DNA of 32,000 bases from Clostridia bacterium (GCA_017528375.1 JAFXOY010000041.1:22480-54479); one strand, 5' to 3'. Counted from the stretch's first letter, positions 1-31,249 are shown. The notes: generated by a model from the sequence alone, not told the origin. A program made the numbers and translations.

Positions 1-2
1 AC

Positions 3-13738: not shown

Positions 13739-14074
13739 ATGGCTACACATTACATCCCAAAAGACTTAAGAGGTGAAGGAAGAATATTATTAATATTCTC
13801 AACTAAGTCATTAATAACAACAGCAATATTTGGTGGTATTGGAGTTGTATTTTACTTAATATTCAGCGCTTTAGGATTAAAAATTGTTGGAGTAATTGTC
13901 TTAGCACTGTTAGCATTATTAGGGTATGCTTTTGGAACCTTCAAAATGCCAAAAATAACAGGACTTAGATTTACTAAAAATATTGAAGGAGATTCAATGG
14001 ATGAAATATTTTTAAGATATATAAAATTTAGATCAAACAAGAAGATTTACTCATACACAAAGGAGGATAAATAA
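13739..14074 (+). CDS. PrgI family / VirB3-like small membrane protein
   Basis: AAGGAGG lies 8 nt upstream. The N-terminus MATHYIPKDLRGEGRILLIFSTKSL is followed by two TM helices and a basic tail FLRYIKFRSNKKIYSY. This matches the PrgI-family pattern as I remember it. It sits just upstream of the VirB4 region, as in Gram-positive T4SSs. Confidence 0.75.
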   Translation: MATHYIPKDLRGEGRILLIFSTKSLITTAIFGGIGVVFYLIFSALGLKIVGVIVLALLALLGYAFGTFKMPKITGLRFTKNIEGDSMDEIFLRYIKFRSNKKIYSYTKEDK

Positions 14075-15358
14075 ATGGGAAACGGATTACAAGGTATAAT
14101 TTATTTTATAATTGCAATATGTGTTATTCTTGCCATAGCATTAGCAATAGTTCTAGCATATATCTGGTACAAAGATAATCGTAAAAAGCAAGAATTAAAT
14201 GATACACAAAAATCAGATAAAAATAAATCAAATTCACCTACAAAGCTACAAGGAATTGAATCAATGTCTAAGTTCTTAGCCTTTGATGATATTGTAGATA
14301 GCATGATTGTTAGAAAAAATAGAACTCAATATGTAATGGTAATTCAATGTAAAGGTGTTAACTTCGATTTATTAGGGGAAGAAGAAAAAATGGCTGTAGA
14401 AAGTGGATTTACTCAATTCTTAAATACATTAAGATTTCCAGTACAGTTATATGTTCAATCAAGAAGCTTAAACTTAAAAGATAGCATAGATAAATATCAA
14501 GCAAGAGTTAATGAAGTTAAAGACGAAATAGTAAAATTAGATAATCAAATAAAAAGAGAACAAGCAAATGGAAGATTAGACTTAGTAAGAAGATTACAAT
14601 TTGACAGAAGAAGAAAAATGAACATTTTAGAATATGGAGCTGATATTACAAACTATGTAGCAAGATTAAGTCAAAACAGAAATGTTTTACAACAAAATAC
14701 TTATGTGGCAGTTGCTTACTACACAAATGAATTCGGTGGACAAATTGCAAACTACTCAAAAGAAGAAATTGATAACATAGCGTTTTCTGAGTTATATACA
14801 AGAGCACAAACATTAATTAGAGCTTTATCTGCATCAGGAGTTACAGGTAAGGTTATGAATTCAGAAGAGTTAGCAGAACTTCTTTATGTTGCATATAACA
14901 GAGATGATTCTGAATTAATAAGTGTTAAAAAAGCAATCGAGTCTCAATATGATAGCTTATACCACACAGCTAAAGATGTATTAGAAAAACAAAAAGAAAT
15001 GATTGAAGAAAAAGTAGATAAAGAAGCAATTGATTTAACATCACAAAGCATTGCAAAAGCTGATAGAATTTTAAAATTAAGACAAGAAAACAAAGAAGAA
15101 ATTCGTAGAAGAGCAATGGCTTATGTTGAAAGATATAAAGGTGAAATGACTAGTGACCTTTATGAAGAAACAAAAAGACAAGTAGAAAAAGCAAAAATAG
15201 GTGAAGAACCAAGAAAAGAAACCAAAATTACTAAGCCAACTAAAGAAGTAGAAAGAAAAACAGTAGCTAAAAAGAGACCTACAGCAGTACAAGCAGAGTC
15301 AGAAATAAGAACAGAACAACCAAGAGTACGACGCAGAAGACCAACAGTAACGGAATAA
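14075..15358 (+). CDS. Bitopic membrane protein with a long charged/coiled-coil C-terminus; T4SS-associated, function unknown
   Basis: The ATG directly follows the upstream TAA, and the AGGAGG lies inside the upstream gene end. It has one N-terminal TM (IIYFIIAICVILAIALAIVLAYIW). It has no Walker A. The tail is K/E/R-rich and ends RTEQPRVRRRRPTVTE. Confidence 0.7.
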   Translation: MGNGLQGIIYFIIAICVILAIALAIVLAYIWYKDNRKKQELNDTQKSDKNKSNSPTKLQGIESMSKFLAFDDIVDSMIVRKNRTQYVMVIQCKGVNFDLLGEEEKMAVESGFTQFLNTLRFPVQLYVQSRSLNLKDSIDKYQARVNEVKDEIVKLDNQIKREQANGRLDLVRRLQFDRRRKMNILEYGADITNYVARLSQNRNVLQQNTYVAVAYYTNEFGGQIANYSKEEIDNIAFSELYTRAQTLIRALSASGVTGKVMNSEELAELLYVAYNRDDSELISVKKAIESQYDSLYHTAKDVLEKQKEMIEEKVDKEAIDLTSQSIAKADRILKLRQENKEEIRRRAMAYVERYKGEMTSDLYEETKRQVEKAKIGEEPRKETKITKPTKEVERKTVAKKRPTAVQAESEIRTEQPRVRRRRPTVTE

Positions 15359-15396: not shown

Positions 15397-17358
15397 ATGA
15401 AATTATTTAATTTAAAACAAAATACCAAAGAAATCGAGAAAAAAGTTGAAGAAGAGAAAAGTGTTTTGAAAAGAAACAGAAAAACTCTTAAAGATATAAT
15501 TTCACCAGCAGGTGTTGATGCAACACATACAAATCATTTGGAAATTGTTGCAAGTACAACAAAATATGCACGTAGTGTAATAATTTCCACAATGCCAAGA
15601 ATGTGTACTTTCCCAGAGTTTCTAAGAAGCATGTATACATTTGGAGATGCAAATATTTCAGTTTTTATTAAACCAATTACTGAAAATACATCCCAAACAG
15701 ACTTAAACAGAAGAATCAATGAAATTGAATCTGAAAGAATTGTAGCAGCAGAAAGAGGAAACATCAACAGGGAAAGAATTCTAGCCCAAAAAAGAATGGA
15801 AGCAGAAGAGTTAAGAGACTCAATTGCAGGTGGATTTAATAAATTATATGAATCTTCAGTAATATGTACATTATTTGCATATAACTTGGAAGATCTAGAT
15901 AAACAAACTGAGTTATTATCAACAGAAATGTCAAAAACATTAATAGGAATTAAACCAGCATGGGCAATGCAAGAAGATGCATTTAATTCAAATATGCCTT
16001 TTGTAGATAATAGAATAAACAAAGAGCATACATTTGACCGTAACTCAATGGCAACAGTATTCCCATTCTTTAATTCAGACATAGGACATGAGAACGGAAT
16101 TCCACTTGGATTTAATCGTCAAACAGGATTACCAATTCTTTATGATAACTTTAACAAAGAATTAAATAACTATAATATGGTTGTTTTCGGTAAATCTGGT
16201 GCTGGTAAATCAGTTGCAATTAAAACATTAACAGCTCGTTCATCAGTTCTTATGGGAATTGAAAGTTTAGCACTAGACGCCGAAGGTGAATACGGAGTTG
16301 TTGCTGAAGCACTAGGTGGAGTAAATGTTGTAATTAGTCCAAATTCAAACACAATTATAAATTTATTTGATATAGAGCCAGAACTTGTAAAAGATGAAAT
16401 TACTGGAAAAGAAAGAGCAATTTTAAATGTAGAAAATAAAGTTGAAGATGTTACTCAAGCACTGGTAACAATGGCAAGAGGAAGCACAAGAAGTTCAGAA
16501 GTAAATGAGCTTACAAAACAAATTATTGCTGAAACAGTAAAAGAAGAATATGAAGCATATCAAATTACAAGTGATGTAAATAGTATATATGTTAAGAAAA
16601 ATGAAAGAGTAATGGAAGACGATTACTTAGGAAGACAAAGAAAAGAAATGCCAACAATTGGTTCATGGTATAAACGTTTGATTAGAAAAGCAAAAGCAAA
16701 CGAAAATCCTGACTACAGATTCCATTACAGTTATTTAGCAAAAGTTATGAGACAATATGTAAGAGCTTTAGGTGGACAAATGGCATATTTCGATGGTCAA
16801 TCAACCTTCGAATTATTAGAAGATATTCCATTTATTAACTTAGATATATCTCAACTTGAAGAAAGATTTGCAAGACCACTTGCACAACAAATATTACTTT
16901 CTTGGGTATGGGAAAAATACGTAAAGAAAAATAGTGAAGATAAAGAAAAAGCAGCAAGAAAAAGGGTTCTAGTCGATGAAGCATGGATGCTTTTACCTTA
17001 CCCAGAAGCTGTAGATTTCTTAAACACAATGGCAAGACGTGCCAGAAAAAGAAATGTTTCTCTAGCAGTTATTTCACAAAAATTCCAAGACTTCTATGAG
17101 AGACCAGAAGTACAAGTAGTTTTAACATCATCAGATACAAAACTATTCTTAGCACAAGATAAATCAGAAATAGAATACATAAGAGAAGTATTTAAATTAA
17201 GTGAAGGAGAAGCAAACTTCTTAACAACATGTACAAGAGGTGAAGGTTTGTTAAAAGTAGGTGAAGATACGGCAATTATTTCAATAAATCCTACTAAAAA
17301 AGAATTTGAATTCATAGAAACAAACTTAAATGAATTAGCAAAAAGAAGACAGGAGTAA
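15397..17358 (+). CDS. virB4: VirB4-family T4SS ATPase (TraE/PrgJ/TrsE-like)
   Basis: Walker A is VVFGKSGAGKSVAIK (GKSGAGKS at nt 16189-16212). It is followed by LALDAEGEYGVVAEALGG...IINLFDIEP. Walker B is RVLVDEAWMLL (~16966-16998), and ARRARKRNVSLAVISQKFQDF follows. The N-terminal segment IISPAGVD...HLEI...YARSVIISTMPRMCTFPEFLRSMY...ISVFIKP fits the VirB4 N-domain pattern. Confidence 0.88.
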   Translation: MKLFNLKQNTKEIEKKVEEEKSVLKRNRKTLKDIISPAGVDATHTNHLEIVASTTKYARSVIISTMPRMCTFPEFLRSMYTFGDANISVFIKPITENTSQTDLNRRINEIESERIVAAERGNINRERILAQKRMEAEELRDSIAGGFNKLYESSVICTLFAYNLEDLDKQTELLSTEMSKTLIGIKPAWAMQEDAFNSNMPFVDNRINKEHTFDRNSMATVFPFFNSDIGHENGIPLGFNRQTGLPILYDNFNKELNNYNMVVFGKSGAGKSVAIKTLTARSSVLMGIESLALDAEGEYGVVAEALGGVNVVISPNSNTIINLFDIEPELVKDEITGKERAILNVENKVEDVTQALVTMARGSTRSSEVNELTKQIIAETVKEEYEAYQITSDVNSIYVKKNERVMEDDYLGRQRKEMPTIGSWYKRLIRKAKANENPDYRFHYSYLAKVMRQYVRALGGQMAYFDGQSTFELLEDIPFINLDISQLEERFARPLAQQILLSWVWEKYVKKNSEDKEKAARKRVLVDEAWMLLPYPEAVDFLNTMARRARKRNVSLAVISQKFQDFYERPEVQVVLTSSDTKLFLAQDKSEIEYIREVFKLSEGEANFLTTCTRGEGLLKVGEDTAIISINPTKKEFEFIETNLNELAKRRQE

Positions 17359-17362: not shown

Positions 17363-18511
17363 ATGAAGAAATTTATAACTATAACAGCAATTGTTATATT
17401 ATTACTTAATTTCATATCAATACGCTCGTATGCTGCAACAGACGAAAATGGTTTGTTCGATTACACTAAAGGGTTCGATTTATCTCCTCAGCAGTCTGGA
17501 GGGATAACGCTTGTTACAGATGAAGGACAAAAAGTAAGCTCTTCACTAAATGGAGCAACAAAGACAATTGGATTAGCGTTTAAAGCAATTGTGAATACAT
17601 TAACTGTATTTCCACATGCAATTAACCAAGTGCTAGACGTATTTGTTGAAGTTACAACAGAAGATGAAGTAAACCATTTTACCATATATGACACAGTAAT
17701 GGGACATTATGATTTGTTTGACATCGATTACCTAAACATACCAGACAAATTAACAGATGATTCAACACTTATAGAAGAAATAAAGTATTATGTAATTAGA
17801 GCATATAGAACAACAAGAAACTTAAGTATTGCAATAAGCTTATTTGTTTTAATATACATTGGAATAAGAATGGCAATATCAACTGTTGCAAGTGATAAGG
17901 CAAAATATAAGAACATGTTAGTACATTGGACAACTTCGCTAGTATTAGTTTTCCTTATACACTTTATAGTTATAATAATTTCGTTAGTGCTACAGGTGGG
18001 ACTTGGGATTGTAGAAAATATTGCAAAAGCATGGGAAGTAAGCAATTTAGAAGAACAGCTATTTAGTGGTTCAGTGTTATATACAAGTACATTATCTACT
18101 GGAATTGGAATAGCATCATTCTCATCAGCAGTAATAATTTGGGTATTAGCATATTATCAGGTAAAATTCTTTTTATATTACTTAAGAAGAACTTTGGAAG
18201 TAAACTTTTTAATAGTGGTTTCACCACTAGTTACAATTACATACTCAATTGACAAATCCGGAGACAACAAAGCACAAGCATTTGAACAATTTATGAAAAT
18301 GCTGATATCAAAATCAGTAATACAACTATTACATGCAATAGTATATGTTGTATTTATAGCAACAGCCGGTGTAATTGCAGTAAGACATCCACTATTAGCA
18401 ATACTATTCTTTGCAGCACTAGCAAGAGTAGAAAAGATAGCAACAAGAGTATTCTCAGTAGATGAACAAGGATTCCAAAAAGTAAAAGTACCATTTATAA
18501 AAGGAGCATAA
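17363..18511 (+). CDS. VirB6/TrbL-like polytopic membrane protein, paralog 1 (382 aa)
   Basis: It has a signal peptide (…ISIRSYA|ATDENG), multiple TM helices, and a position immediately after VirB4. It shares a ~225-aa core with 25096-27051 and with the middle of 20327-25078 (RNLSIAISLFVLIYIGIRMAISTVASDKAKYKNML...; FLIVVSPLVTITYSIDKSGDNKAQAF...). Confidence 0.6.
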   Translation: MKKFITITAIVILLLNFISIRSYAATDENGLFDYTKGFDLSPQQSGGITLVTDEGQKVSSSLNGATKTIGLAFKAIVNTLTVFPHAINQVLDVFVEVTTEDEVNHFTIYDTVMGHYDLFDIDYLNIPDKLTDDSTLIEEIKYYVIRAYRTTRNLSIAISLFVLIYIGIRMAISTVASDKAKYKNMLVHWTTSLVLVFLIHFIVIIISLVLQVGLGIVENIAKAWEVSNLEEQLFSGSVLYTSTLSTGIGIASFSSAVIIWVLAYYQVKFFLYYLRRTLEVNFLIVVSPLVTITYSIDKSGDNKAQAFEQFMKMLISKSVIQLLHAIVYVVFIATAGVIAVRHPLLAILFFAALARVEKIATRVFSVDEQGFQKVKVPFIKGA

Positions 18512-18646
18512 TGGGGACGTGCACAATTGGGGACGCGTCCCGGCTGTGCAAAATGCACAGCTAGGGACGGGTCACAAACTTGACAAACTTGACACATTTG
18601 GGGACGGTCTTGTTTTGTGTCAAAAATGACACATTCAGGGACAGAC
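18511..18646. repeat. GC-rich palindromic element cluster (GGGAC-repeat family, locus D) inside the T4SS-like operon
   Basis: 18520-18568, TGCACAATTGGGGACGCGTCCCGGCTGTGCAAAATGCACAGCTAGGGAC, matches 11014-11062 at 46 of 49 positions in the same orientation. A tandem 9-mer ACAAACTTG x2 lies at 18574-18591. The 33-bp unit TGACACATTTGGGGACGGTCTTGTTTTGTGTCA lies at 18590-18622. A partial unit TGACACATTCAGGGACAGAC lies at 18627-18646. Confidence 0.85.
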
Positions 18647-18679
18647 ATAACTAAAAAAGTAAGGAGATGATAATTAAAA

Positions 18680-19801
18680 ATGATAATAAATGAAATAAAA
18701 AAACATAAAAAAATAATTATTATTTTAGTATCTATTTTATTATTATTTTTAATTACCATTATACTTATTAAAATAGATCAAAAGAAAAAATATGGAAAAT
18801 TTATAGAAGAAGAAACAGCCAGAGTAAAGCAATACACAGCACTTACAGATTTTCAATCAATACAGGAAGTAGCATTATATTTAGACTGTAAATTGGAAAA
18901 GCAAGAAAAATCGCAAAAAGAAAATGTTGACTATGATATTTACATGACTCTTCCGATTGATGTTGCAGACGGACATGCAAAACACAAAACATTTTTAGAA
19001 AAATTAATTCAATATTCTGCATATGCATTAAAATACAAAAACTTCATTATTATAGATAAATCAAAAAACATTAATATAGCTGTTGTATGTAATGAAAAAG
19101 AACAAGAAATAGAAACATACTATATTAATAATGTTGAAAACTACTTTACAACAAAACAAAATGAAGAAAACATTGATAGCTTTAAAACAACAAGTGAAAT
19201 TGAATTAAATGTTACATCAAATGAATTGCAACAAATAATAAGTTTAGATTGGCGATCAAGTAATTTACAAGTAGGAACAGCAGAATCAACTTTCAAAGGT
19301 TATGATATTTATTTTGATGAAGGATATCAAATAAAAAAAGTAGCAGGAAAAGTATTTAACATAGTATTCACTGATAAATATCAAAATAATGTAGTTAACA
19401 ATTTAAATGTAAATTCTACAATAGAAGAAATAAAAAATTCTTTAGGGAAACCTCAATTTGAAAGTGGAAATTTAATTGGATATAAATCAAAAGATTTCTA
19501 TGTATTTTTCTATAATAATCAAATTTCAATATACAGAGTTGATTATTATGACACTGAAAAATTTGCAGAAATAATAGATAAGTATAAAGAAAGCATAGAT
19601 ACAAAATCTTTTGTAGATGAAGTTAAAAGTAATTGGACAGATTATGATATTTCAGATTATGGAACAAACTACATAAAAATTCAATACACACTAAAGGGAA
19701 TAACAATAAAATATGATTCAACAGAAAAACAGGGAATAGTAGTATATAACAATTACAATGGTAAATTACTACGGAAATCTAACTTTAGAAGAAGTTGTTA
19801 A
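18680..19801 (+). CDS. Bitopic membrane-anchored protein (N-terminal TM, ~340-aa external domain), function unknown
   Basis: AAGGAG (18661-18666) lies upstream, and the nearer ATG 18667 runs into a stop after 8 codons. The TM is IIIILVSILLLFLITIILI. I recognise no motifs. The last ~13 codons (GKLLRKSNFRRSC, including a CGG codon) look out of frame; see the frameshift finding. Confidence 0.65.
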   Translation: MIINEIKKHKKIIIILVSILLLFLITIILIKIDQKKKYGKFIEEETARVKQYTALTDFQSIQEVALYLDCKLEKQEKSQKENVDYDIYMTLPIDVADGHAKHKTFLEKLIQYSAYALKYKNFIIIDKSKNINIAVVCNEKEQEIETYYINNVENYFTTKQNEENIDSFKTTSEIELNVTSNELQQIISLDWRSSNLQVGTAESTFKGYDIYFDEGYQIKKVAGKVFNIVFTDKYQNNVVNNLNVNSTIEEIKNSLGKPQFESGNLIGYKSKDFYVFFYNNQISIYRVDYYDTEKFAEIIDKYKESIDTKSFVDEVKSNWTDYDISDYGTNYIKIQYTLKGITIKYDSTEKQGIVVYNNYNGKLLRKSNFRRSC

Positions 19802-20234
19802 TACAAAACAAACATTACCAAATAATATATTTATTGAAAATGAAGATTTAGTATTTGAAACTGAAAAATCTAGAGTAAATACTTTAGAAGATACAACTAA
19901 CAATGGAAATTATCCATCAACAGTAATATTAAACACAAGCAAAAAGTTTAAAGTAGCAAAACAGTTATTGCAAGGAAGTGACAACATGTACCAAATAAGA
20001 TTTATATCAATAAATAATGAACTTCCAAATACAGAATTAAGGGAAGTAATAAGCAGAGGAATTTGGTATGATGATTACAATTTTATATTTGCAGTAAAAG
20101 AAAGAGGAATATTTATTTATAATGTTCAAACACAAAGTTATAGAACTTTAAAAACAGGTAATGGAGAATTCATGATACACAATATAGAAAATAATAAATT
20201 ATATTATGATAATGATTCATTAGAAATCCAGTAA
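19758..20234 (+). CDS. Hypothetical protein, or the C-terminal part of the preceding gene after a +1 frame change
   Basis: It overlaps the upstream ORF by 44 nt and has no RBS before ATG 19758. Its frame is open only from 19743. Codon usage looks genuine from the first codons onward (MVNYYGNLTLEEVVNTKQ...). Confidence 0.5.
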   Translation: MVNYYGNLTLEEVVNTKQTLPNNIFIENEDLVFETEKSRVNTLEDTTNNGNYPSTVILNTSKKFKVAKQLLQGSDNMYQIRFISINNELPNTELREVISRGIWYDDYNFIFAVKERGIFIYNVQTQSYRTLKTGNGEFMIHNIENNKLYYDNDSLEIQ

Positions 20235-20326
20235 AACAATAACGAAATGAAAACAGTTTAATATCAGTTGCAGACTGTAAAAAATCGATGTGATTCGAAA
20301 ATAAAAAAAGAAGGGAGGGCTGCAAA

Positions 20327-23300
20327 TTGAAAAAACTATTCAAGAAAATCTTAATAATTTGGGCAATAATTTGCATGCTTCTTCCAACAGTATTTACAGG
20401 AGTTGCGTGTGCAGCAGATATTAATTATATAAACACAGAAAGGGCAGGAAATTTTGCAAGTAACTTTGCTATCAACTTCTATGAGAATTGGAGTAGCATT
20501 TCACTTATAGAAGAAGATGGTGGAAAAGGAAATTCAAATGCATATATTAACGGAAATCACAATTTTGTTTGGCCACTTACAAAAGGTTCATACACAATAA
20601 CAAGTGAATTCGGACCAAGATCTTTAGATAATCATAAAGGTATGGATTTTGGAGCACCAAAAGGAACTCCAGTATATTCAGCAAGTTCTGGTATAGTTAA
20701 AGAAACGTTTACAACATGTGAACATAACTATGGTAAAGATTATAACTGTGGATGTGGAAGTGGCTATGGAAATAACATTAAGATAGATACAGGAGACGGC
20801 TTTTTAGTTATATATGGACATCTTACAGATGTACTTGTAAATGTTGGAGATACAATTAAGCAAGGTCAGCAAATAGGTACAGTAGGAAGCACAGGATGGT
20901 CTACAGGAGATCACTTACATTTCGAATTATCAACAAATAATATTGAAGGTTTAGATGTTGCAGATTATATTGATAGAATTGGAAATGGCGGAATTATTTT
21001 TGGATATAAATATAGTGTAAACCCAAGAAAATTCATAAGTGATAGTGCTACAATTAGCAGTTCTGATGCTGGAAAATCATCAAGCAGGGTAAATGCGACA
21101 AGCGTATTAGCAGCTGGTCAACAAATATATGATAATATTTTATTAGGAAATACAAATATTGCGTATGTAGCATATCCAGGAAGAGATTCAGAACAAATAG
21201 TAAATGATAAAAGTTATTCAGAACAACATGGTATGGACTGTTCAACATTTGTTTCAGCAGCTTTATGGCTAGCTGGATATGACGATTTTAAAAGTACTAA
21301 AAATACATATATGCTTGAAGATGGATGCTTAAGTGGTGAATATGTAAGAAAATACGGATTTGGAGTATATAAAACTGATAGAGCTGGAAGAGTATTTCAA
21401 TTAGATGAAAATGGAACAGCACATGAATTAGCAGGAGAATTTGCAGATAGGTTTATTCAACCAGGAGATATAATAGTAGTAAACTGGCCAGATAGAAGAA
21501 ATGGACATACAAACATAGTAAAAGAATTAACACCAGGAAACTCAAATAAATACTTAGCACTAGACTGCGGTAATTCAAGTAATTGGCAAAACCAAGCAAA
21601 TTATAACGCGAACGGTGGAGGTACAAACTTTGATATATGGACTTCAGTTAATTGGGATGCATATTATGGTGGAACAAGTCAAGCATTCTTAATTAGAGCA
21701 GGTGGAACAGGAAGAAGTACTTACAATTCTTCATCAAAATTAATAACAAGAGGACAAATAAAAACAGAATATGATGCAAACATCAATCCAATGGATGAAG
21801 TTGATCCAAAAACACAAGAAAATTACAAATTCAACAATATATCTTGGATAGGATTTGCATATAGAAATTCATTGTTTAATAATAATGTTGATAACATTTT
21901 ATCTGGATCAGGAAATAGCATTACAATTAATACATCAAACTTTAATGATAAAACACAAATACCAGGAATCAAAGATGTAGCAGATGATTCAAAATATTTA
22001 GATATAGCAACATTAATAAACGAAGGAAAAGTTAAACCAGGAGATATATTATATTCTGAATATACATTTTTAGATGAAGATGGAAACGAAAAAAATGTAA
22101 AAGAGTATTTATTATATGTAGGTGGTACAGCAGTAATTTATGCATCAGAAGACCCAAGAGTTGCAGCAAGTGGAGCATTAAAATATGAATATGTTGAAAG
22201 TTATTTAAAAAGAATAAGACAAAGAATTTTAGCTGCACATGAAGATGAAGAAGACTTTGAAATGCCTAAATATGGAATTACTCAAATATATAGAATTAAG
22301 GATGAAGTAGCAAGTAAAATTCCAGAAACAGATACAAATTTATTTTTTAATGGTAAAGGATATTATTCAAAAACAACATATGAAGGTTTACCTTCTAAAA
22401 TAGCACTAGCACAAGTAAAAATAGACATGGTAAAATGGTTATTTGATGCACTAGAAAGAGTCCTTGAATTCTTAATAAACTTATTTATTTACATATTAAG
22501 AATGGTAATTTTAGGTTGGGCAAACTTAGTTGAAAACCTAATTCAACACATTGTTCTAGGAATAAGCGGAGATAACAATGATGCATCAATCTGGAACACA
22601 GTATTTGGTACAAGTGCAACATCTGCATCAGGCGAAAGAATAACAGTTGAATCAATCTTCTATAACCAAATTCCAATTCTAGATGCAAATTTCTTCAACT
22701 TAGAAACAGCTGGAGGACATGAAATATTTGGTGAAGGTGCAGAAGGTGAATATGGAATTGTTTACAGCTTAAGAAACAACCTAAGAAATATTTATGTAGT
22801 AGTAAGAAATGTTTCAATAGCATTAATGTTATTTTTATTAATATTCTATGGAGTAAGAATAGCAATAACAACATCAAGTCAAAAGAAAGCAGAATACAAA
22901 AAATTATTAACATCATGGTTGTTTGCATTTGGTGTAGTATTGTTTATACACATATTCATGTTCTTAGTATTTGAAGTTAACGATACATTAGTTAGTACAT
23001 GTAAAAACTGGGAAAATGAAGTAGCTAGAAAGAATTTAAGTGATATAATACAAATTACAAATTCACAACAAGAATTAAACTTATATGATGCAGTAAGAAC
23101 AAAAGCCTATGCATTTGACTGGCATGAAGGTGTTCCAGCAACAGTAATATACATATATTTAATATACTTAATGATTAGATTTTTAATTATCTATCTAAAG
23201 AGATATGTAACAATCTATATTTTAGCTTTATCTGGCTCATTTATGGGAGTTAAATACGCAATAGATAGATTAATGGGTAAGAAAACAAAAACTTTAAATA

Positions 23301-25078
23301 AATGGGCAAAAGATTTTGCATTCAATGTTTTACTACAAACAGTACATGCATTTATTTATCTATTATTTATAGGTGTTGCAATTTCAGTTTCAGGAAAAAG
23401 CTTAGGTGGAGCATTAATTGCAGGTATAATTCTTAACTTTATGCTTAAAGCGGATAAGATTATTATTAATATATTCGGATTAGATAAAGCTGGTTCACTA
23501 GCTACAGTTAATGAACCAGAATCATTTGGTAAAACAATTCGTGAATTTATGCCAATTTATACAATTTCAAGAGGAGCTCTTGGAATATTTAGTGGAGACT
23601 CAAAATTATATAAGAGTGTAAGATATTTCTTTACTGATGCAGATAATTTTAAAGATGCTAAAAAAGAAGTTGAAAAACAAAATTATCAACTTATGGGTTG
23701 GTTAGCAAGAAAAATAGATAGAACCCCAATTAGAGAATTATCAAGATTTCATAACCTATACACAAGGTTAGGTAATGACTTAGATAATGACACAAACAAA
23801 AAAATACTTGCAGCAATTAAAGATGCAAGAAAGAAAACAAATGCAAGATATTTAAGAAAATTAAATATGGCAAAGGATTTAACTTTAGGAACAGCAGGAA
23901 AAATAGCAAGCTTAGGTGTTGCAATAGCAAATCCAGCTGCTGGTGTGGGATTATTTTTACAATCAAACAAAATGATTAAAAAATATAAAACTACAAATAA
24001 AACAAAGTTAAAAGCACAAAAATATGGTGGCTCAACTGCTAAAGCTAGAATAGATTTACAAAGGGCAAACAATACATATAAAGTTGTTTTGGATAGACAT
24101 ACAAATAATGAATTAGCATATCAAGAAGAATATGAAAGACTACATGATATGTATAATAGAGCAACAAGTGATGCAGAAAGAACAAGAATTAATAGTGAAG
24201 CTCAAAGATTACTTGCTGAAAGGGAACAACAAAGATCTATTGAATTACACGAATTAGCTGAAGCAACAGATAAGCAACGTGAAGCTAAAAATGATTACAA
24301 CAAGGCTAGATTTGAAAACAACATGTTTATGAAAACAGTTGGAAAAGTTACAGGATTAGAAACAATTAATAATATAGCTCAAAACGAAGCTGTAAATGCT
24401 GAAAAAGCTGTTAAAGATGATGAAAAAGCAGAGAAAAAAGCAAAAGACTTAGATAAAATTGCAAAACTTGAAAAAGAATTAAGAGATGCTACAACAAACT
24501 TAAAGACTTTACAAAAAGAATATGCAGAAAAGAAAAATCTTTCAGAAGAAGATACAGATAAATACATTAAAGACAGCTTTAATAAGGTATATAAGCAATC
24601 TAAAGAAATTAATATTAGGTCTTCATATATTGCACAAGCTGTAAGCGAATATTTATCTAGAAAAAGTATTTCAAAGGTAACCGGGGATAATGTTGATGAT
24701 GTATTAGATAATCTAAAAGAAGTAATGGCAAGAAACAACAAAACATTCGATGTTACTGATGAATTGAAAAATAATGTAAAAGAAGCACTAGAAAGCAAAA
24801 TGCTAGATGATAGAAAAGGACTTGGATTAGACAAGAAAGATGCTATAGTAACAATAAGACAAGCTTTAGTAAAAGGAAAAGATCATTTACGTAGAGATAA
24901 CAATAATCAACATAAAGATACAGATGAGTTAGAGAAATTAAAACAACGAATTGAACAACTTGAAGATTTAAGATTACAAAAAATCAATCAAATTAATACA
25001 TATAATGAGGTTGGAAAAATTAAATATAAATCTTCATTAGTAAGTGTAAATAAAATTATTAAAGAGACAAATAAATAA
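20327..25078 (+). CDS. 1583-aa fusion protein: signal peptide, M23 (LytM) peptidase, NlpC/P60-like cysteine peptidase, VirB6-like polytopic core (paralog 2), long charged/coiled-coil tail
   Basis: A TTG start is preceded by AAGGGAGGG 7 nt upstream. The signal peptide ends ...TGVACA|ADIN. M23 motifs are HKGMD (H103/D107), YGHL and GDHLHFE (aa 82-205, nt ~20570-20941). The NlpC/P60-like region has HGMDCSTFVSAALWLAGY (Cys305 codon at 21239-21241) and PGDIIVVNWPDRRNGHTNIV. The TM core at aa ~700-1055 is homologous to the 382-aa and 651-aa proteins. The tail at aa ~1100-1583 is K/E/D-rich and helical-looking. Confidence 0.8.
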   Translation: MKKLFKKILIIWAIICMLLPTVFTGVACAADINYINTERAGNFASNFAINFYENWSSISLIEEDGGKGNSNAYINGNHNFVWPLTKGSYTITSEFGPRSLDNHKGMDFGAPKGTPVYSASSGIVKETFTTCEHNYGKDYNCGCGSGYGNNIKIDTGDGFLVIYGHLTDVLVNVGDTIKQGQQIGTVGSTGWSTGDHLHFELSTNNIEGLDVADYIDRIGNGGIIFGYKYSVNPRKFISDSATISSSDAGKSSSRVNATSVLAAGQQIYDNILLGNTNIAYVAYPGRDSEQIVNDKSYSEQHGMDCSTFVSAALWLAGYDDFKSTKNTYMLEDGCLSGEYVRKYGFGVYKTDRAGRVFQLDENGTAHELAGEFADRFIQPGDIIVVNWPDRRNGHTNIVKELTPGNSNKYLALDCGNSSNWQNQANYNANGGGTNFDIWTSVNWDAYYGGTSQAFLIRAGGTGRSTYNSSSKLITRGQIKTEYDANINPMDEVDPKTQENYKFNNISWIGFAYRNSLFNNNVDNILSGSGNSITINTSNFNDKTQIPGIKDVADDSKYLDIATLINEGKVKPGDILYSEYTFLDEDGNEKNVKEYLLYVGGTAVIYASEDPRVAASGALKYEYVESYLKRIRQRILAAHEDEEDFEMPKYGITQIYRIKDEVASKIPETDTNLFFNGKGYYSKTTYEGLPSKIALAQVKIDMVKWLFDALERVLEFLINLFIYILRMVILGWANLVENLIQHIVLGISGDNNDASIWNTVFGTSATSASGERITVESIFYNQIPILDANFFNLETAGGHEIFGEGAEGEYGIVYSLRNNLRNIYVVVRNVSIALMLFLLIFYGVRIAITTSSQKKAEYKKLLTSWLFAFGVVLFIHIFMFLVFEVNDTLVSTCKNWENEVARKNLSDIIQITNSQQELNLYDAVRTKAYAFDWHEGVPATVIYIYLIYLMIRFLIIYLKRYVTIYILALSGSFMGVKYAIDRLMGKKTKTLNKWAKDFAFNVLLQTVHAFIYLLFIGVAISVSGKSLGGALIAGIILNFMLKADKIIINIFGLDKAGSLATVNEPESFGKTIREFMPIYTISRGALGIFSGDSKLYKSVRYFFTDADNFKDAKKEVEKQNYQLMGWLARKIDRTPIRELSRFHNLYTRLGNDLDNDTNKKILAAIKDARKKTNARYLRKLNMAKDLTLGTAGKIASLGVAIANPAAGVGLFLQSNKMIKKYKTTNKTKLKAQKYGGSTAKARIDLQRANNTYKVVLDRHTNNELAYQEEYERLHDMYNRATSDAERTRINSEAQRLLAEREQQRSIELHELAEATDKQREAKNDYNKARFENNMFMKTVGKVTGLETINNIAQNEAVNAEKAVKDDEKAEKKAKDLDKIAKLEKELRDATTNLKTLQKEYAEKKNLSEEDTDKYIKDSFNKVYKQSKEINIRSSYIAQAVSEYLSRKSISKVTGDNVDDVLDNLKEVMARNNKTFDVTDELKNNVKEALESKMLDDRKGLGLDKKDAIVTIRQALVKGKDHLRRDNNNQHKDTDELEKLKQRIEQLEDLRLQKINQINTYNEVGKIKYKSSLVSVNKIIKETNK

Positions 25079-25095
25079 AAGGAAGTAGGTGTCAA

Positions 25096-27051
25096 ATGAA
25101 AACAAGTAAACATATTAAAAGAATAAGTTTAATTTTATTAATTAGCATGATTGCTTTAGCTTTGTTTAAAGTTTCTTATGGTGCAGATACTGTTTCCAAA
25201 GGCTTAACAGGTGCTGGATATTCAATTGTTGCATTTTTAACATTAGGAATACAGGAATTTGCATTATTAATATTCTTAGCGTTAAGAACATTAACAGTTG
25301 TAATTACTGGGGTGGCTAGTGAAGGTTTTGGTGGAACAATAGGAGATGTAGTATTTAATAGATGTGGACTTACATCAGCAAACTTCTTTCCAGAAGTTTG
25401 GATTGGAGAAAATCCACAATATGGCCAAACATTATCAACAGTTGTTTCAAGTATTAGAACTTATTATAATGTAATTAGAAACTTATCAATAGCAATATTA
25501 TTATTTATATTAATATATGTTGGTATAAGAATGGCAATATCAACAACTGCTTCAGATGAAGCAAAATACAAAAAGATGTTAAAAGATTGGGCAGTAAGTT
25601 TAGTCTTGGTGTTTATGCTACATTTTATTATGATAATTACATTTTTCATAAATAATTCATTAGTATACGCATTATCAGGATTAGATTCTGGATCAGGAAA
25701 TGCACAGTGGCTTGAGCTTGCAGGCTCAGCCGCAATACCAGGAATTGGATGGCCAGACTTAATTATATATGGAGCATTTACAATAGGTACAATTGCATTT
25801 GTATTAATGTATGTAAAACGTACAATAGTATTAGGATTTTTAATTGTAATTTCACCATTAATTACAATTACTTATTCAATAGATAAAATGGGTGATGGTA
25901 AATCACAAGCATTAAATGCGTGGTTAAAAGAATTCATTTTCACTGTAATTGTTCAACCATTCCATTGTATAATTTATTTAGTATTTTATGATTCAATTAT
26001 GAAATCAGTGACTGGTTTGGGAGAATTAGATTTAGGGAAAATGATATTTGCAGTAGGTAGTGCATTGTTTATGCTAAAAGCAGAAGGTATAATTAAGAAA
26101 ATATTTGGTGTACAACCAAGTAGCATTGGGGATGCCTTAGGAACAGGTGCAATGGCATTAACAATGGCAACATCAATGTTTAAAGGTTCAGGAAAGAAAC
26201 TTAATAAAAATAAAGGTGAAATGAAGAGAATGGATCAAGGCAAAGATGTTAAAACAACTAAAAATAAAGGTGTTCCAACAGATGTTACAGGAGCTAATCA
26301 AGCAGCTCAAAGAAACGCAAATGCAAATGGCGGACAAAACGCAGGAGCAAATGCAGGAAATGGTAATGCCAATATGCCTGGAGATATTTCAAATGCAATA
26401 GATAATGCTAGAACTGGTGAAAACCAAGCACAAAAACAACCTACATGGCTTGGAAGAAAAATTAGAAAAGCTGTAAGTAGACATGGTGGATGGACAGGAG
26501 CTGTTGCAGATTATGCTAAATCTAGTGCTCGTAAGGCAGCAGCAACAGCAGGTTTTATAGCTGGTGCTACTGTTGGTGACTTCAAAACAGCGGCTTCAAC
26601 TGCTACAGCTGCAAGTGGGGTTGCTAGAAATATAGCAGATGATCTAGAATACAAACATGCAGAAAAAATTCTTGAAGACAATCAAAAAGTTTATGCAGAT
26701 AGTTATGAAGACTTTGCTGATGAATATAGAGCAAGAATTAATGCAGAAGCAACTGATGAAGAAATCAGAGCAGAAATTGGAAGAATTATTGAAACAAATG
26801 GTTTAGGACTTGAAGATTGGCAAAGAGATATTTATGATAAAGCAGATCAATTATCAACAGGTGCTGAAATTATGGGATATTCAGATGGCGCAGATTATGT
26901 ACTTGACACAAGTAGATTGGCTGCTGAAGGTGTAGTTGGACATACAGATAAATATGTTCCAAAAAGAAATAGAAGAAATGATAATAGTAATAATAACAAT
27001 AATAGATTTACTGATAACAACGATAGCAATGACAATAGCTCAAATTCATAA
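25096..27051 (+). CDS. VirB6/TrbL-like polytopic membrane protein, paralog 3 (651 aa) with a low-complexity C-terminal extension
   Basis: It has a signal peptide or N-terminal TM (…LFKVSYG|ADTV). The core RNLSIAILLFILIYVGIRMAISTTASDEAKYKKML... and FLIVISPLITITYSIDKMGDGKSQAL... closely matches 17363-18511. The C-terminal ~290 aa is hydrophilic, with N/A/G-rich runs (NANANGGQNAGANAGNGNAN; NDNSNNNNNRFTDNNDSNDNSSNS). Confidence 0.7.
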   Translation: MKTSKHIKRISLILLISMIALALFKVSYGADTVSKGLTGAGYSIVAFLTLGIQEFALLIFLALRTLTVVITGVASEGFGGTIGDVVFNRCGLTSANFFPEVWIGENPQYGQTLSTVVSSIRTYYNVIRNLSIAILLFILIYVGIRMAISTTASDEAKYKKMLKDWAVSLVLVFMLHFIMIITFFINNSLVYALSGLDSGSGNAQWLELAGSAAIPGIGWPDLIIYGAFTIGTIAFVLMYVKRTIVLGFLIVISPLITITYSIDKMGDGKSQALNAWLKEFIFTVIVQPFHCIIYLVFYDSIMKSVTGLGELDLGKMIFAVGSALFMLKAEGIIKKIFGVQPSSIGDALGTGAMALTMATSMFKGSGKKLNKNKGEMKRMDQGKDVKTTKNKGVPTDVTGANQAAQRNANANGGQNAGANAGNGNANMPGDISNAIDNARTGENQAQKQPTWLGRKIRKAVSRHGGWTGAVADYAKSSARKAAATAGFIAGATVGDFKTAASTATAASGVARNIADDLEYKHAEKILEDNQKVYADSYEDFADEYRARINAEATDEEIRAEIGRIIETNGLGLEDWQRDIYDKADQLSTGAEIMGYSDGADYVLDTSRLAAEGVVGHTDKYVPKRNRRNDNSNNNNNRFTDNNDSNDNSSNS

Positions 27052-27082: not shown

Positions 27083-30000
27083 ATGAATGATGAAGAAGAT
27101 GATGTACTTCTTAACACCATGGATGATGAACAAAATGCGAAAAAACAACGTAAACAAGAAAAGCAAGAAGGTCAAAACACATTATTTGGAAGAGTAAAAC
27201 AAAATGCCAAAGAACAGGCAAAAGAAAAAACAAAAGAAACAGCCAAAAGAGAATATCAAAAGTATAAAAAGGCAAAAAAAGTTGCTAAAAAAGCTGGAAA
27301 AGTAGCCGGCGGTGCAGCCAAAGTTGCAAATCCTGTTGGAGCAACAGTATTTCTAATTATATTAATAATTATAATAATTATAGGTATCATTTCATTTATA
27401 ACATCAATGCCTGGTCTTGTTCAACAAGAAATAATGAAAAAGGTCATGGGAGCTAAAGATTTGCTATCATACACACTTGGAGGAAGTGACTATTACCTAA
27501 CAGATTTAGCAACATCAGAAGAAGGAGAAAAATATAGAAAAGATGTTTTAAAATACTTAAACGATATGGGACTTGACCCTGCTGGTTTCGGATTTGCACC
27601 ATTTTTCCGTGTGAATTCTGATGGTGAAGTAGAATATGATACATCAATTGCAATAGATGATGTTCCAGGAGTACATGAATTATTTAGTGCTTTGGTAGCA
27701 AACTGGAAAGCACAAAAGAGAATTGAAAATCAAGATTTAATTTTTAAATATCTTGTATCAAATGAAAGAACATATTTAGTTGATGATGACTCAAAAGCAA
27801 CAAAAGTAATTGAAAAACTAGGAGTTACACCTATTTATGAAAGCTTATTTGGTTCTACTAAGCTAAAAGGTATGATAAAAATGAGACTAGAAGGTGGCTT
27901 GGGAAATGACCAATGGCATACATTTACAGTTGACAGAGAAAATCAACAATTAATTATCGCAACAGCTAATTTAAGCGAAACAAAGTTTAAATTAAAAGAA
28001 GGCGAAGACGGATTCTTTAAAAAAGCATTAAAATCAGGTTTAGTAGGTGGAGTTATAGGTTCATTTATAGGTGATTCTGATGTAGCAGTTGATGTTCCAA
28101 TTCAAATGGCAACTTATGATTTAAGTTCATATGCTGGTAGATATGGAACTCCACTAGAAATGCTTTTAGCACTACACTTAGCAACAATGACATCAGATTT
28201 AACAGATGAAATGGTTACTAATGAAAATTTGCAAACTGAGTTAAGCTTAAAAGTGAAATTAGATTCATATGACACAGATTATGAAGTCTCATATAACGGA
28301 AAAACATTACCTGCCAAAATAGGTGATTATGGATTTGCTGAACCAGACATGCATGAGTATATTTATTATGATGATGATAATGTCGCTCGTGTAACTGCAG
28401 GTTCAGAAAGGGCTGGAATTACAATAAGAAGCTTACGTAATTGGGCAAACAAAATAACACAACACAAAAACTTAAATTTAGCAGCAGACCAACAAACAGT
28501 AAGAGCAATTGAAGCTAAAAATGCACTTTTAGGAAATGGAGAATTCTATATTGACTATAGAATGCTAGAAAATATAGGTGACCTTGATGTGCGTGATGCA
28601 ATGGGGTTAAGAAAAGGTACAAGTAATGATGCAATTTATATAGGTCCTGCTGAGGGGATTTCAAATAATGGAAATATAATACTTCATGGTTTACCATATT
28701 ACATAAATGGTAATGAAAAAGAAATTCGAAATGACGAATATACACGAAATGGAATTACATATATATTAAGTCAATTAGACGCGTGCTTAGTTTACGAAGA
28801 ATTAGAATTAATTTCAAATTATGAATTTAATGAAGACAATTTATTATTAGCGCAACAATGGATGGATTTCATTTCTGATGAATCAAATTTAACAGATGAA
28901 AGAATCCATGAAGAGTTAGTTAATTTATCAAAAAATGTTACAAATTATTTTGATATAATTGAACATAAAGAAGAAAAAATGCAAAATGTAATCGACAGTT
29001 ATTTAGGAGTACATTTAACTCCAGATGATTTACAAGCAATTATAAATAGTGCAAAAGACTTACCAGGAGAATATGAATTTGCAATGCCAAGAATTGAGCA
29101 TGTAATCAAGCACTGGTATAAAGATGTCATATTTGAAAATAAGAATATAGATGGAGTTTATGATTCATCAAGTGAAGCCATTCGTGCACCTATTTCAGAT
29201 ATTGAAACAACAAATGGAGATAAAATACAAATCACGGCAATATTAACAGATGGAAAAGCTTATAGCCAATCAGGACAACCATATGTTGTTAAAGGGGATG
29301 TTGTTACACTTGACGGAGAAGTTGTTGAAGATTCAGGTGTTGAAAATTTAACATTTTCTGGAGGATATAAAGTAGGTGATGGATATAGAACAACCAAAAA
29401 ATTATTTACTCAAGGTCAATACTATATCTTTGACGGTTCAAGAGAAACATCTCAATCAATTTACTATGCAAAAGAATTGGAAAAATTAAAACCAAATTCT
29501 AATAATGAATTTGCAATTGTACATGTTCAAAACGGAAGAATATCAATATTAAACTCTGCTGGCGTAGGCGGAAATCCATTAGAAATAATTGGAGATTCTT
29601 ATAGTGCGGGACAATGGAATACAAGTACTCAATTTGTTGGTGATAAAAGAATTAAGGCTAATTTAGGTTCAACAGTAATAAATGATGAAAATGGAAATTG
29701 GTCAGTATTCTTAGCAAAGGCTTATGATTCAGGGGCAAATATTTATTATGTTAAAGCAAATGCTGATTTAAAATATTTATCACCTGCAGATTATACTTAT
29801 GAAGAAAGTAAAAAATCAGTTGAAAAGATAAATTCTTTACTAGAAGCAATGGGTGTTGTAACAATAAGAAAACCAATAAGTTTTGACAACACAACTGCAA
29901 ATGGTGAAATTACAACATTAACGGCATTTGAAATTCTTGAAGGAATGCACACAGAAGCTGCAGAAGATGTATATAAAGATTTAAAAGAAATGTTAATAGA

Positions 30001-31249
30001 ATTAGGATATTTTTCAAAAGCAGAATTTGATCAAATTTCTACTAATGTTTTAGACTGGTTTATTCCAGACTATACTCCACGTTCAAAACAATGGAGACAA
30101 AACAGAGAAGAAGATGATTTATATTATGGTGCAATATTATATCCTGCAAGTATGGCAGAAACAACAGATTCTGAAAATGATTCAGAAAATACTGAAATTG
30201 GATTTGAACCAGATTTAGATGTAATAGCACCAGGAAATGCTCGTATTAAGGAATTAAGAGATGATGGAATAACTTTAGTATTTGACGGAATTTCAGAGCC
30301 AGAAATAGGAGCATTAGACAAATATTCAATGAGTATTGATGGAATTGTAATTGATAGAAATGCTGTAGTAAATGTGATTGATTCAAATGGTGAAGAAAGT
30401 GAAATGTCTTTACAAAGTGTATTTGAAAGTGAAGGTAAATATATTGTTAAAGTTGGAGAAATTATAGGACATACTGGAAATACAAAGATTCAAGTAATTT
30501 TAAAGAATAGTAAAGAGGGTTATATAGACAACATTGAAGACTATATGGCACCAGCGTTAAGTGCAACACCAGTAGTATCAGCTTCAGATGAAGCATATTT
30601 CTATTTCTCACCATATGAAGGAAGACCAGAGTCAGTTGGTGGACGTAATGGTAATGAAGTTGCAGTAGGTATTTGTCAATGGACAACAATAAATGGTTCT
30701 TATAATAATATAAGCCCATTCTGCAAATGGTTAGTAGAGCAAGATGCATCATTATGTGGTGAATTAGAAACATTTGTATACTGGACTGCGCAAGACTTTG
30801 TTGATGATTATTATGGAGCTGGACAATTAAAGAAAGCTTTCGAAAAAGTAAATTATAGAGATAGTACTAAATTTAGACAATTACAAGAAACATATGCTAA
30901 GAACGAAAAAGAGCAAATTATTAGAAATTTAGGACTAGGATGGGTATTAGAAAAAAATCCAGTAACAGCGGGAACATTATTCTCACTGGTTAACTGGGGA
31001 CCATACATGGGTTGGGAGAACCAGATTGACCAATCTATGTCTGATGAGCAAATAATTAAAGCATTATTAAAATATGCATGTACAAAAAATTCAACTGCAG
31101 GTTCATTAAATGCAAGATGGGAATCTCAAGCAAAACTTGCAATAGATATATTATATGGTAACTTTACAGATATATCTGGATGGCGTGCAAATCCAGCTCA
31201 ATATCCACAATATGGACAAGGAAATAATGCTGGATATTTAACAAAATAA
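27083..31249 (+). CDS. 1388-aa bitopic envelope protein: K/E-rich cytoplasmic N-terminus, one TM, large external region ending in a degenerate LytM-like segment and a lysozyme-like domain (PrgK/CwlT-analogous)
   Basis: AGGTGAT lies upstream of ATG 27083. The TM is VGATVFLIILIIIIIIGIISFITS (aa ~86-108). The degenerate LytM-like segment is at aa ~1040-1156 (VIAPGNARIKEL...VKVGEIIGHTGNTKIQVILKNSKEGYIDNIEDYM) and has no HxxxD or HxH. Residues ~1170-1365 contain EVAVGICQWTT...FCKWL..., which resembles the GIxQW motif of the phage-tail-lysozyme/CwlT N-domain type. That recollection is from memory and unverified. Confidence 0.65.
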   Translation: MNDEEDDVLLNTMDDEQNAKKQRKQEKQEGQNTLFGRVKQNAKEQAKEKTKETAKREYQKYKKAKKVAKKAGKVAGGAAKVANPVGATVFLIILIIIIIIGIISFITSMPGLVQQEIMKKVMGAKDLLSYTLGGSDYYLTDLATSEEGEKYRKDVLKYLNDMGLDPAGFGFAPFFRVNSDGEVEYDTSIAIDDVPGVHELFSALVANWKAQKRIENQDLIFKYLVSNERTYLVDDDSKATKVIEKLGVTPIYESLFGSTKLKGMIKMRLEGGLGNDQWHTFTVDRENQQLIIATANLSETKFKLKEGEDGFFKKALKSGLVGGVIGSFIGDSDVAVDVPIQMATYDLSSYAGRYGTPLEMLLALHLATMTSDLTDEMVTNENLQTELSLKVKLDSYDTDYEVSYNGKTLPAKIGDYGFAEPDMHEYIYYDDDNVARVTAGSERAGITIRSLRNWANKITQHKNLNLAADQQTVRAIEAKNALLGNGEFYIDYRMLENIGDLDVRDAMGLRKGTSNDAIYIGPAEGISNNGNIILHGLPYYINGNEKEIRNDEYTRNGITYILSQLDACLVYEELELISNYEFNEDNLLLAQQWMDFISDESNLTDERIHEELVNLSKNVTNYFDIIEHKEEKMQNVIDSYLGVHLTPDDLQAIINSAKDLPGEYEFAMPRIEHVIKHWYKDVIFENKNIDGVYDSSSEAIRAPISDIETTNGDKIQITAILTDGKAYSQSGQPYVVKGDVVTLDGEVVEDSGVENLTFSGGYKVGDGYRTTKKLFTQGQYYIFDGSRETSQSIYYAKELEKLKPNSNNEFAIVHVQNGRISILNSAGVGGNPLEIIGDSYSAGQWNTSTQFVGDKRIKANLGSTVINDENGNWSVFLAKAYDSGANIYYVKANADLKYLSPADYTYEESKKSVEKINSLLEAMGVVTIRKPISFDNTTANGEITTLTAFEILEGMHTEAAEDVYKDLKEMLIELGYFSKAEFDQISTNVLDWFIPDYTPRSKQWRQNREEDDLYYGAILYPASMAETTDSENDSENTEIGFEPDLDVIAPGNARIKELRDDGITLVFDGISEPEIGALDKYSMSIDGIVIDRNAVVNVIDSNGEESEMSLQSVFESEGKYIVKVGEIIGHTGNTKIQVILKNSKEGYIDNIEDYMAPALSATPVVSASDEAYFYFSPYEGRPESVGGRNGNEVAVGICQWTTINGSYNNISPFCKWLVEQDASLCGELETFVYWTAQDFVDDYYGAGQLKKAFEKVNYRDSTKFRQLQETYAKNEKEQIIRNLGLGWVLEKNPVTAGTLFSLVNWGPYMGWENQIDQSMSDEQIIKALLKYACTKNSTAGSLNARWESQAKLAIDILYGNFTDISGWRANPAQYPQYGQGNNAGYLTK

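Follow-up and report, generated by a model that had tools for sequence, protein, structure and literature searches.

Three putative VirB6-type paralogs encoded in a type IV secretion locus of a Clostridia bacterium

The locus described here raises the question of what a single-membrane bacterium might do with three copies of a VirB6-type gene, and whether the three products work in one machine. Among the core subunits of type IV secretion systems (T4SS), VirB6 is understood least, above all in single-membrane bacteria. The locus lies in a stretch of 32,000 nucleotides from an uncultured Clostridia bacterium of the gut (GCA_017528375.1, JAFXOY010000041.1:22480-54479), and this whole stretch is called the window below. 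Its operon is a monoderm, MPF-FATA-like T4SS in which three related membrane proteins are encoded, here termed A, B, and C. The monoderm systems described in two recent papers are each treated as having one VirB6-type gene (PMC12857230; bioRxiv 10.64898/2025.12.18.695078). Three VirB6 copies in one operon are unusual for a single-membrane bacterium and suggest a composite stalk. The reading preferred here, with a probability of about 0.6, is that A, B, and C go back to old duplications of a divergent VirB6/TrbL-type subunit and jointly fill the VirB6 position of a single machine.

Paralogy and remote relationship to VirB6

A, B, and C are paralogs. In pairwise BLASTP, A and C showed 45% identity over 202 amino acids (aa) (E 3e-43), A and B 26% over 238 aa (E 2e-20), and C and B 28% over 344 aa (E 6e-37), i.e., values far beyond chance. 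An earlier note on this DNA had described a recurring core of ~225 aa. This was confirmed, and the common polytopic region proved slightly longer, with 266 columns in a hidden Markov model (HMM), i.e., about 270 residues. In residue numbers, the core lies at 141-366 in A, 815-1055 in B, and 120-345 in C, in agreement with the aligned blocks. The nucleotide coordinates proposed for it earlier match these blocks and are listed in Table 1, and the peptides quoted from the three proteins are all present in their translations. A motif upstream of the core, 'FN...NFF', had also been pointed out as common to all three. Its residues F87, N88, and F98 (C numbering) are conserved family-wide, being kept in at least 90% of the members.

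By hydropathy scan, each protein has an N-terminal signal/anchor segment and five to six hydrophobic core segments, and the helices were also visible in the AlphaFold2 models of C and A. The parts outside the core differ in size, with total extensions of ~1200 aa in B and ~280 aa in C. B is arranged as signal/anchor segment, Peptidase_M23 domain (residues 102-205), a region to approximately residue 700, the core, and a Lys-rich C-terminal extension of ~500 aa. C carries a conserved C-terminal extension, to which its ~280 aa belong. Residues 220-700 of B gave neither a family match nor a PDB sequence match. A 'GMDCSTFV ... GHTNIV' pattern in this region looks NlpC/P60-like, by eye only.

The three proteins are very probably VirB6-type, as remote relatives and not as Pfam members. 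In direct searches of A, B, and C, only sub-threshold matches were obtained in Pfam and NCBIfam. In PHROGs, A and C had no match, and B matched M23-domain families only. PF19590, which we take to be TrbL_3, was precomputed on some relatives; it was not reproduced by a live Pfam scan and was not used as evidence. By tblastn of C against plasmids, a weak match was found in a gene of the Terribacillus plasmid pDMT04, annotated as 'type IV secretion system protein'. In hhalign, the 144-sequence core profile aligned with the family of this plasmid protein with a probability of 98.3, an E-value of 1.6e-14, and 195 columns, spanning block 1 of the core to the core end. The pDMT04 family alignment is a thin profile, i.e., the plasmid protein and three relatives. 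One of its members, P0258, scored 27.7 bits in Pfam TrbL, above the threshold of 25.9, and PrgH of pCF10 scored 29.2.

The fold of the proteins points in the same direction. The AlphaFold2 model of C had a predicted local distance difference test score (pLDDT) of 82.5 and a predicted template modelling (TM) score of 0.76. In Foldseek against PDB, its top match was 7o3v_G, i.e., TrwI/VirB6 of R388, with a probability of 0.99, TM scores of 0.40/0.52, and a root-mean-square deviation (rmsd) of 5.8 Å over 251 columns, and several other TrwI chains came next. Nearly all other matches had low probability and rmsd above 10 Å; one non-TrwI match, a designed helical repeat, reached a probability of 0.80 but an rmsd of 28 Å. 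For the independent model of A (pLDDT 83.9), TrwI chains were the sole credible matches (probability 0.6-0.84, TM ~0.41). These predicted folds are taken as corroborating, and their Foldseek E-values are not significant alone.

The closest named sequence families are of Mycoplasma. NCBIfam MMCAP2_0566 was matched by 118/144 members (best 4e-13) and Mbov_0396 by 82/144 (best 5e-11). The curated cutoffs of Mbov_0396 and MMCAP2_0566 (70/90 bits) were not reached, and the window proteins scored 15-29 bits. Mbov_0396 is numbered directly before Mbov_0397, a VirB4 family which the VirB4 of the window also matches. In the Mycoplasma integrative and conjugative element (ICE) ICEA, CDS16 adjoins VirB4/CDS17 and is likely VirB6 (PMC12857230). 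From its number beside Mbov_0397, Mbov_0396 is probably this CDS16.

Several results weigh against the VirB6 assignment. A, B, and C did not reach the threshold of Pfam TrbL (PF04610; 25.9 bits) and had no match to it at E <= 0.1, and 0/144 family members matched it at E <= 0.01. The family profile gave no match to PDB sequences, its hhalign comparison with a single PrgH sequence was not significant (probability 0.1), and PrgH and Tn916 Orf15 were not detected by the core HMM. The fold matches to TrwI are weak, with Foldseek E-values of 0.09-1.2, TM scores of 0.31-0.52, and rmsd of 5.8-8.6 Å. The assignment was made because the indirect profile, fold, and Mycoplasma-family matches stand together with the gene position. 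The term VirB6-like in the earlier note thus holds as remote homology through the pDMT04 family (98.3%), and not as direct membership in Pfam TrbL. The note had made this term depend on two points, i.e., similarity to VirB6/TrbL in profile or structure, and the association of single copies with VirB4. The former was found in the alignment to a TrbL-passing family and in the Foldseek matches to TrwI, the latter on three Firmicutes plasmids whose single copies are directly downstream of VirB4.

Block 1 of the core resembles VirB2-like pilins, a feature that the earlier note does not mention. Pfam T4SS_pilin (PF18895) matched this block below its threshold of 26.6 bits in A (19.8), B (20.5), and C (23.5), and matches at E <= 0.01 were obtained in 111/144 family members. 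In hhalign, the core profile was compared with an alignment of the 69 VirB2-like pilins from the loci of the family, with a probability of 88.7, an E-value of 2.5e-6, and 77 columns. The match covers the charged loop, GIRMAiSTvAsdKAkYKkML versus GIKYMxA-aPeekAeiKkqLI. The 22 controls gave 0.14 for the reversed pilin alignment, at least 0.017 for twenty column shuffles, and 0.24 for the PrgI membrane family. The pLS20_p028 family matched block 1 only, and the pilin-like Mbov_0395 family was matched by 13 members. From these alignments, the core appears to be composed of a VirB2-like transmembrane hairpin (block 1) and, from block 2 on, a TrbL-homologous bundle of helices. A, B, and C are not members of T4SS_pilin; they score below its threshold, are large and polytopic, and resemble it in block 1 only.

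In R388, only two N-proximal VirB6 helices are in the membrane, and the VirB6 pentamer is the platform for VirB2 assembly (PMC12857230). PrgH of pCF10 was modelled by AlphaFold as a pentameric base for the PrgF pilin (bioRxiv 10.64898/2025.12.18.695078). By analogy, a pilin-like hairpin in the platform would fit a templating role. The label 'channel', under which the three proteins had been introduced, is an assumption, since VirB6 of R388 assembles into a pentamer that serves as stalk or platform and has only two helices in the membrane (PMC12857230).

Conservation and possible joint action of the three types

In a scan of one genome per species, relatives of the family were found in 399 species genomes. 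Among the best 80 of the 399, nearly all were titled uncultured Clostridia, Clostridium, or Lachnospiraceae assemblies, the titles that name a source gave human or animal gut, and one was a complete 1.8-Mb chromosome (OZ006973.1). A whole-library profile search counted 4,627 clusters at 50% identity. With the C-terminal columns included in the profile, the 150 best matches listed were close C-type proteins only, with no bridge to named families. The homolog search with C gave 625 homologs.

The triplication is not peculiar to this window. By local HMM search, three core-bearing open reading frames (ORFs) were present in 53 loci, two in 20, four in nine, and one in three, so that a survey of copy number, as the earlier note had proposed, found two to four copies in 79 of 82 loci. 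They belong to three distinct types. The 215 full-length cores clustered into three groups, which coincide with size and position, i.e., A-type of ~400 aa, large B-type, and C-type of 600-900 aa. A-type orthologs were found in 69 loci, the B cluster has 57 members, and the C type has 89. Mean core identity was 0.41-0.48 within types versus 0.29-0.35 between types. The gene orders in 82 loci were ABC (44), AC (20), BC (6), ABCC (5), C (5), and BCC (2). The motif SPLxTITYSIDKxGDGKxQA is kept by A and C and is diverged in B; the pan-family conserved residues are retained in all three types. VirB4 was found within 10 kb in 75/84 loci.

Three Firmicutes plasmids have a single VirB6-like copy directly after VirB4, with the same module order and secretion subtype. 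These are pINGR16-02E1 of C. botulinum (858 aa, core HMM E 3e-13), pDMT04 of Terribacillus (1289 aa, E 2e-10), and pMU3262 of Thermoanaerobacterium (641 aa, E 7e-8). All three were typed 'non-mobilizable' by MOB-suite, and pDMT04 and pMU3262 both carry Rad52 and DUF3854 genes near the module. In pDMT04, the gene right after the VirB6-like gene encodes a separate SLT+M23 hydrolase. Because three orthologous types are found across loci and the plasmids are single-copy, the duplication is old and each copy maintained. This argues for distinct roles.

The proposed mechanism is as follows. A, B, and C would be non-redundant and would act jointly in one machine at the VirB6 position, either as a mixed pentamer or as stacked rings, with the VirB2-like pilins assembling on top and the pilin-like hairpins nucleating the pilus. 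A heteromeric stalk of this kind is plausible. A would be the minimal subunit, and C would contribute its conserved C-terminal domain. The N-terminal arm of B should be extracellular, because it follows the signal/anchor segment, and it may bring the M23 hydrolase to the place where the stalk or pilus crosses the thick wall. B resembles two neighbouring functions joined in one protein, because in pDMT04 the SLT+M23 hydrolase gene is separate and follows the VirB6-like gene. A point to be set against joint action of all three is that B is absent from 20 loci, so it is dispensable for the basic machine.

Two other explanations also keep a VirB6 role for at least one copy. The paralogs might be interchangeable VirB6 modules, each building its own version of the machine for a certain pilin, substrate, or target cell, without co-assembly. 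Related loci have one or four tandem pilin genes, so matching of pilin and platform is conceivable; AC-only and ABCC loci exist, and the VirB6 paralogs of Rickettsiales have been discussed in similar terms (PMC7648143). This is unlikely, as the window has three VirB6-like genes but one pilin gene, the types are in fixed order in one operon with a single VirB4, and the extensions are not alike in kind, one being a hydrolase, which suggests complementary more than alternative roles. It is also rather improbable that a single copy (A or C) serves as the true VirB6 platform and the others took on different tasks in the part of the machine that spans the wall, e.g., B as a membrane-anchored hydrolase scaffold in place of separate VirB1/VirB8-type proteins. 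B would suit such a part, being the most divergent type, without the SPLxTITYSIDK motif of A and C, and missing from the AC loci; the pDMT04 hydrolase is a separate gene, and the module gave no match to a VirB8-like family. However, B keeps the full core and the pan-family residues, and both A and C are conserved in nearly all complete loci.

That the proteins are not VirB6 analogs at all, but pilin-derived pilus proteins, i.e., minor or tip pilins or anchors with passenger domains, is very unlikely. The T4SS_pilin matches of 111/144 members, the alignment (E 2.5e-6, clean controls) with pilins from the loci themselves, and the 13 Mbov_0395 matches would all agree with such an origin. However, the pilin-like part takes ~77 of ~270 core columns, and the remainder aligns with a TrbL-matching family and has VirB6 as its best fold. 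Each protein has five to six hydrophobic helices, unlike fibre subunits, and on the related plasmids the VirB6 gene usually comes directly after VirB4. It is barely credible that the extra copies are decaying, functionless duplicates. Split or truncated copies do occur in a few loci (L014, L016, L037, L053, and L062), whereas long intact frames are kept in the 44 ABC loci, in different species at ~40% identity, and with type-specific motifs. Joint action of three VirB6-type subunits in one machine is therefore preferred over these explanations.

The secretion module and its surroundings

The genes of the module are listed in Table 1, together with other features of the window. All operon genes are on the plus strand, with intergenic gaps of 4 to 168 bp, and A begins 4 bp after VirB4. 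A terminator-like hairpin stands ahead of the array and a promoter-like site was found at its beginning. In the search for plus-strand terminators from 13.1 to 32 kb, none was convincing between genes, and two matches sit inside the 1388-aa gene. Based on the co-directional genes, the promoter-like site, and the lack of a convincing intergenic terminator, a single operon is reasonable. What the earlier note called one operon is thus supported in its close, co-directional genes without a convincing intergenic terminator, and the operon itself is still deduced from them.

Table 1. Features of the T4SS module and of its surroundings in the window
Feature	Position	Strand	Details
Giant surface protein	1-9302		>3030 aa; Listeria-Bacteroides repeats, Big_2, Big_12; continues beyond left window end
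Palindrome copies with GC-rich hairpins	11040-11130		two copies, between ABC-F gene and tRNA-Arg
tRNA-Arg(TCT)	11253-11329		just upstream of module
Terminator-like hairpin	12780-12807		ahead of array
VirB2-like pilin, first operon gene	13019..13690	+	Pfam T4SS_pilin 29.0 bits (threshold 26.6); TrbC/VirB2 E 7e-4
Promoter-like site	13044-13072
PrgI/VirB3-like small membrane protein	13739..14074	+	Pfam PrgI 30.0 bits (threshold 27); in 46/84 loci
TrsD/TraC-like protein, resembles VirB4 N-terminal part	14075..15358	+	427 aa; in 65/84 loci
VirB4-type ATPase	15397..17358	+	NCBIfam conju_CD1110 E 5e-65, VirB4_plasma E 1e-56
A, putative minimal VirB6-like protein	17363..18511	+	382 aa; core ~17783-18460; hairpin 17816-17965
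Conserved module gene	18680..19801	+	373 aa, N-terminal membrane anchor; homolog in 65/84 loci; no family match
Conserved module gene	19758..20234	+	158 aa; homolog in 53/84 loci; no family match
B, putative extended VirB6-like protein	20327..25078	+	1583 aa; core ~22769-23491; hairpin 22805-22954
Peptidase_M23 domain of B	20630-20941	+	Pfam E 3.6e-27
Residues 220-700 of B	20984-22426	+	no family or PDB sequence match
C, putative VirB6-like protein	25096..27051	+	651 aa; core ~25453-26130; hairpin 25477-25626
Membrane-anchored protein	27083..31249	+	1388 aa; weak CD1108-family match at N-terminus; homolog in 64/84 loci
Small conserved module gene	31271..31861	+	196 aa; homolog in 33/84 loci

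The true start of the pilin gene is probably the ATG at 13109, and this single pilin gene of the window has a long N-terminal region. The 427-aa protein matched positions 89-247 of NCBIfam VirB4_plasma (E 5.5e-5), and the near-identical gene in the related locus L001 has a precomputed match to Pfam PF26593 (TraC-like). TrsD is a remote homolog of the VirB4 N-terminus (PMC12102498), and the 427-aa protein may be equated with TrsD by this likeness. The VirB4 function appears to be split over two genes, an arrangement kept in 65/84 loci. The VirB4-type ATPase also matches Pfam P-loop_TraG, AAA_10, and DUF87. The homolog of the 1388-aa protein in locus L023 has GDSL lipase and Phage_lysozyme2 domains, and from these the 1388-aa protein is probably a wall-hydrolase component of the module. 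The module runs on beyond the window end; in L001, three more conserved small genes and then housekeeping genes follow.

The type of transport was considered from the genes around the core. Among the scanned window proteins, which cover all long operon ORFs, there was no coupling protein (VirD4 or FtsK-like) or relaxase, a point that the earlier note had missed, and no member of the VirB8-11 and VirD4 families. By phmmer with pCF10 PcfC and PcfG, Tn916 Orf21, and MobT, 0 matches were obtained in 84 loci. In 80 related loci (L005-L084), no coupling protein or relaxase cluster was found within ~10 kb of the C gene; in most of these loci, sampling covered only part of the upstream flank, and distant ones could exist, which tells against a system without them. 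A tyrosine recombinase was found in 3 of 84 loci, and the commonest flanking gene, in 28 loci, was a D-Ala-D-Ala carboxypeptidase. With neither a coupling protein nor a relaxase found in its neighbourhood, the machine may have a purpose other than self-transfer. In Patescibacteria, the chromosomal T4SS is thought to be non-conjugative (PMC12102498, PMC12857230), and a non-conjugative role may likewise be considered here.

In 14 loci, e.g., L023:3223-4986, PrgI is preceded by four divergent VirB2/T4SS_pilin genes in tandem. In four loci, i.e., L023 (2268-2915), L032, L055, and L058, a ComEA-like gene (SLBB and HHH_3) is immediately upstream of the pilin genes. These loci include the complete 1.8-Mb chromosome, and the neighbourhood may be a hint of DNA uptake or mere shared synteny. 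The fullest picture, i.e., a chromosomal, pilin-bearing machine of non-conjugative role with a hetero-oligomeric stalk of three pilin-derived VirB6 paralogs and templating hairpins, one paralog having its own peptidoglycan hydrolase, is doubtful as a whole. Such a machine, with no relaxase or coupling protein nearby, would be of a kind described until now in Patescibacteria only. If the picture is true, conjugation would not be the task of the machine; its role would lie in contact between cells, uptake of DNA, or delivery of proteins.

The surroundings of the module were also examined. Two small upstream membrane ORFs are not paralogous to each other. The genes flanking the module in the window (ABC-F, surface protein, ACPS, and TatD) recur in at most four other loci. 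The ABC-F ATPase gene, read from its translation, is outside the module on the opposite strand. The palindrome CTGTGCAAAATGCACAG occurs twice between it and tRNA-Arg, and a GC-rich hairpin comes after each copy. As these copies overlap the TTG start listed for the ABC-F ORF, the real start is probably further downstream. The GTG start listed at 210 for the giant surface protein is not its real start. Integration of an island at tRNA-Arg found no support, as neither the window nor the near-identical downstream sequence of L001 and L002 contained a repeat of the tRNA 3' end. A phage origin was rejected, since the PHROG matches were only generic ones to M23 and P-loop families. No plasmid or phage was matched by the operon in megablast, nor any phage by C in tblastn.

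Significance and comparison with known systems

In our literature searches, neither this family nor a monoderm system with several VirB6 copies was found to have been described. The family is large and nearly unannotated, with two to four conserved, specialised copies per locus. It offers natural material for studying how a stalk is put together, how it couples to pilin assembly through cores with a pilin-like hairpin, and, through the M23-fused copy, how it passes the thick wall. Pilin-bearing T4SS without a relaxase found are extended from Patescibacteria to abundant gut Clostridia, which raises the question of the machine's role in the gut.

TrwI/VirB6 of R388 (PDB 7o3v, 8rt9, and 8rtd), the sole credible fold match, is a polytopic helical protein in a T4SS cluster as A, B, and C are. 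The sequences share 11-14% identity, and the present proteins differ in their monoderm host, three copies, and large extensions of B and C. The Mycoplasma ICEs of Mbov_0396 and MMCAP2_0566, the closest families in sequence, have a single VirB6-like gene and VirD4 (CDS5), and are true ICEs of wall-less cells. In contrast, the present system has three copies and wall hydrolases, with no VirD4 found nearby.

In monoderm systems, PrgH (pCF10), TraL (pIP501), and Tn916 Orf15/ICEBs1 ConG have the same functional place, each being a polytopic protein encoded near PrgI/VirB3 and VirB4. These systems, however, have a single copy each, with coupling protein and relaxase. The chromosomal T4SS of Patescibacteria is close in gene repertoire, on which this comparison is made, as it has VirB2-like pilins (often several), PrgI/VirB3, TrsD, VirB4, and VirB6, is located on the chromosome, and usually lacks a relaxase (PMC12102498). 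It differs in the host phylum, and multiple conserved VirB6 paralogs have not been reported there.

In Rickettsiales, extended VirB6 paralogs in tandem are already known (PMC7648143; Bao et al. 2009 as cited in PMC12857230). The comparison with their rvh system, drawn in the earlier note, is apt as an analogy. RvhB6a-e, and VirB6-1..4 of Ehrlichia and Anaplasma, are tandem paralogs, some with very large hydrophilic extensions (PMC12857230, PMC7648143). The rvh systems are diderm, MPF-T effector translocators of obligate intracellular Proteobacteria, whereas the M23 fusion and the pilin-like hairpin signal are specific to the Clostridia family. The likeness is one of description, and the expansion of VirB6 in Clostridia would have been independent of that in Rickettsiales.

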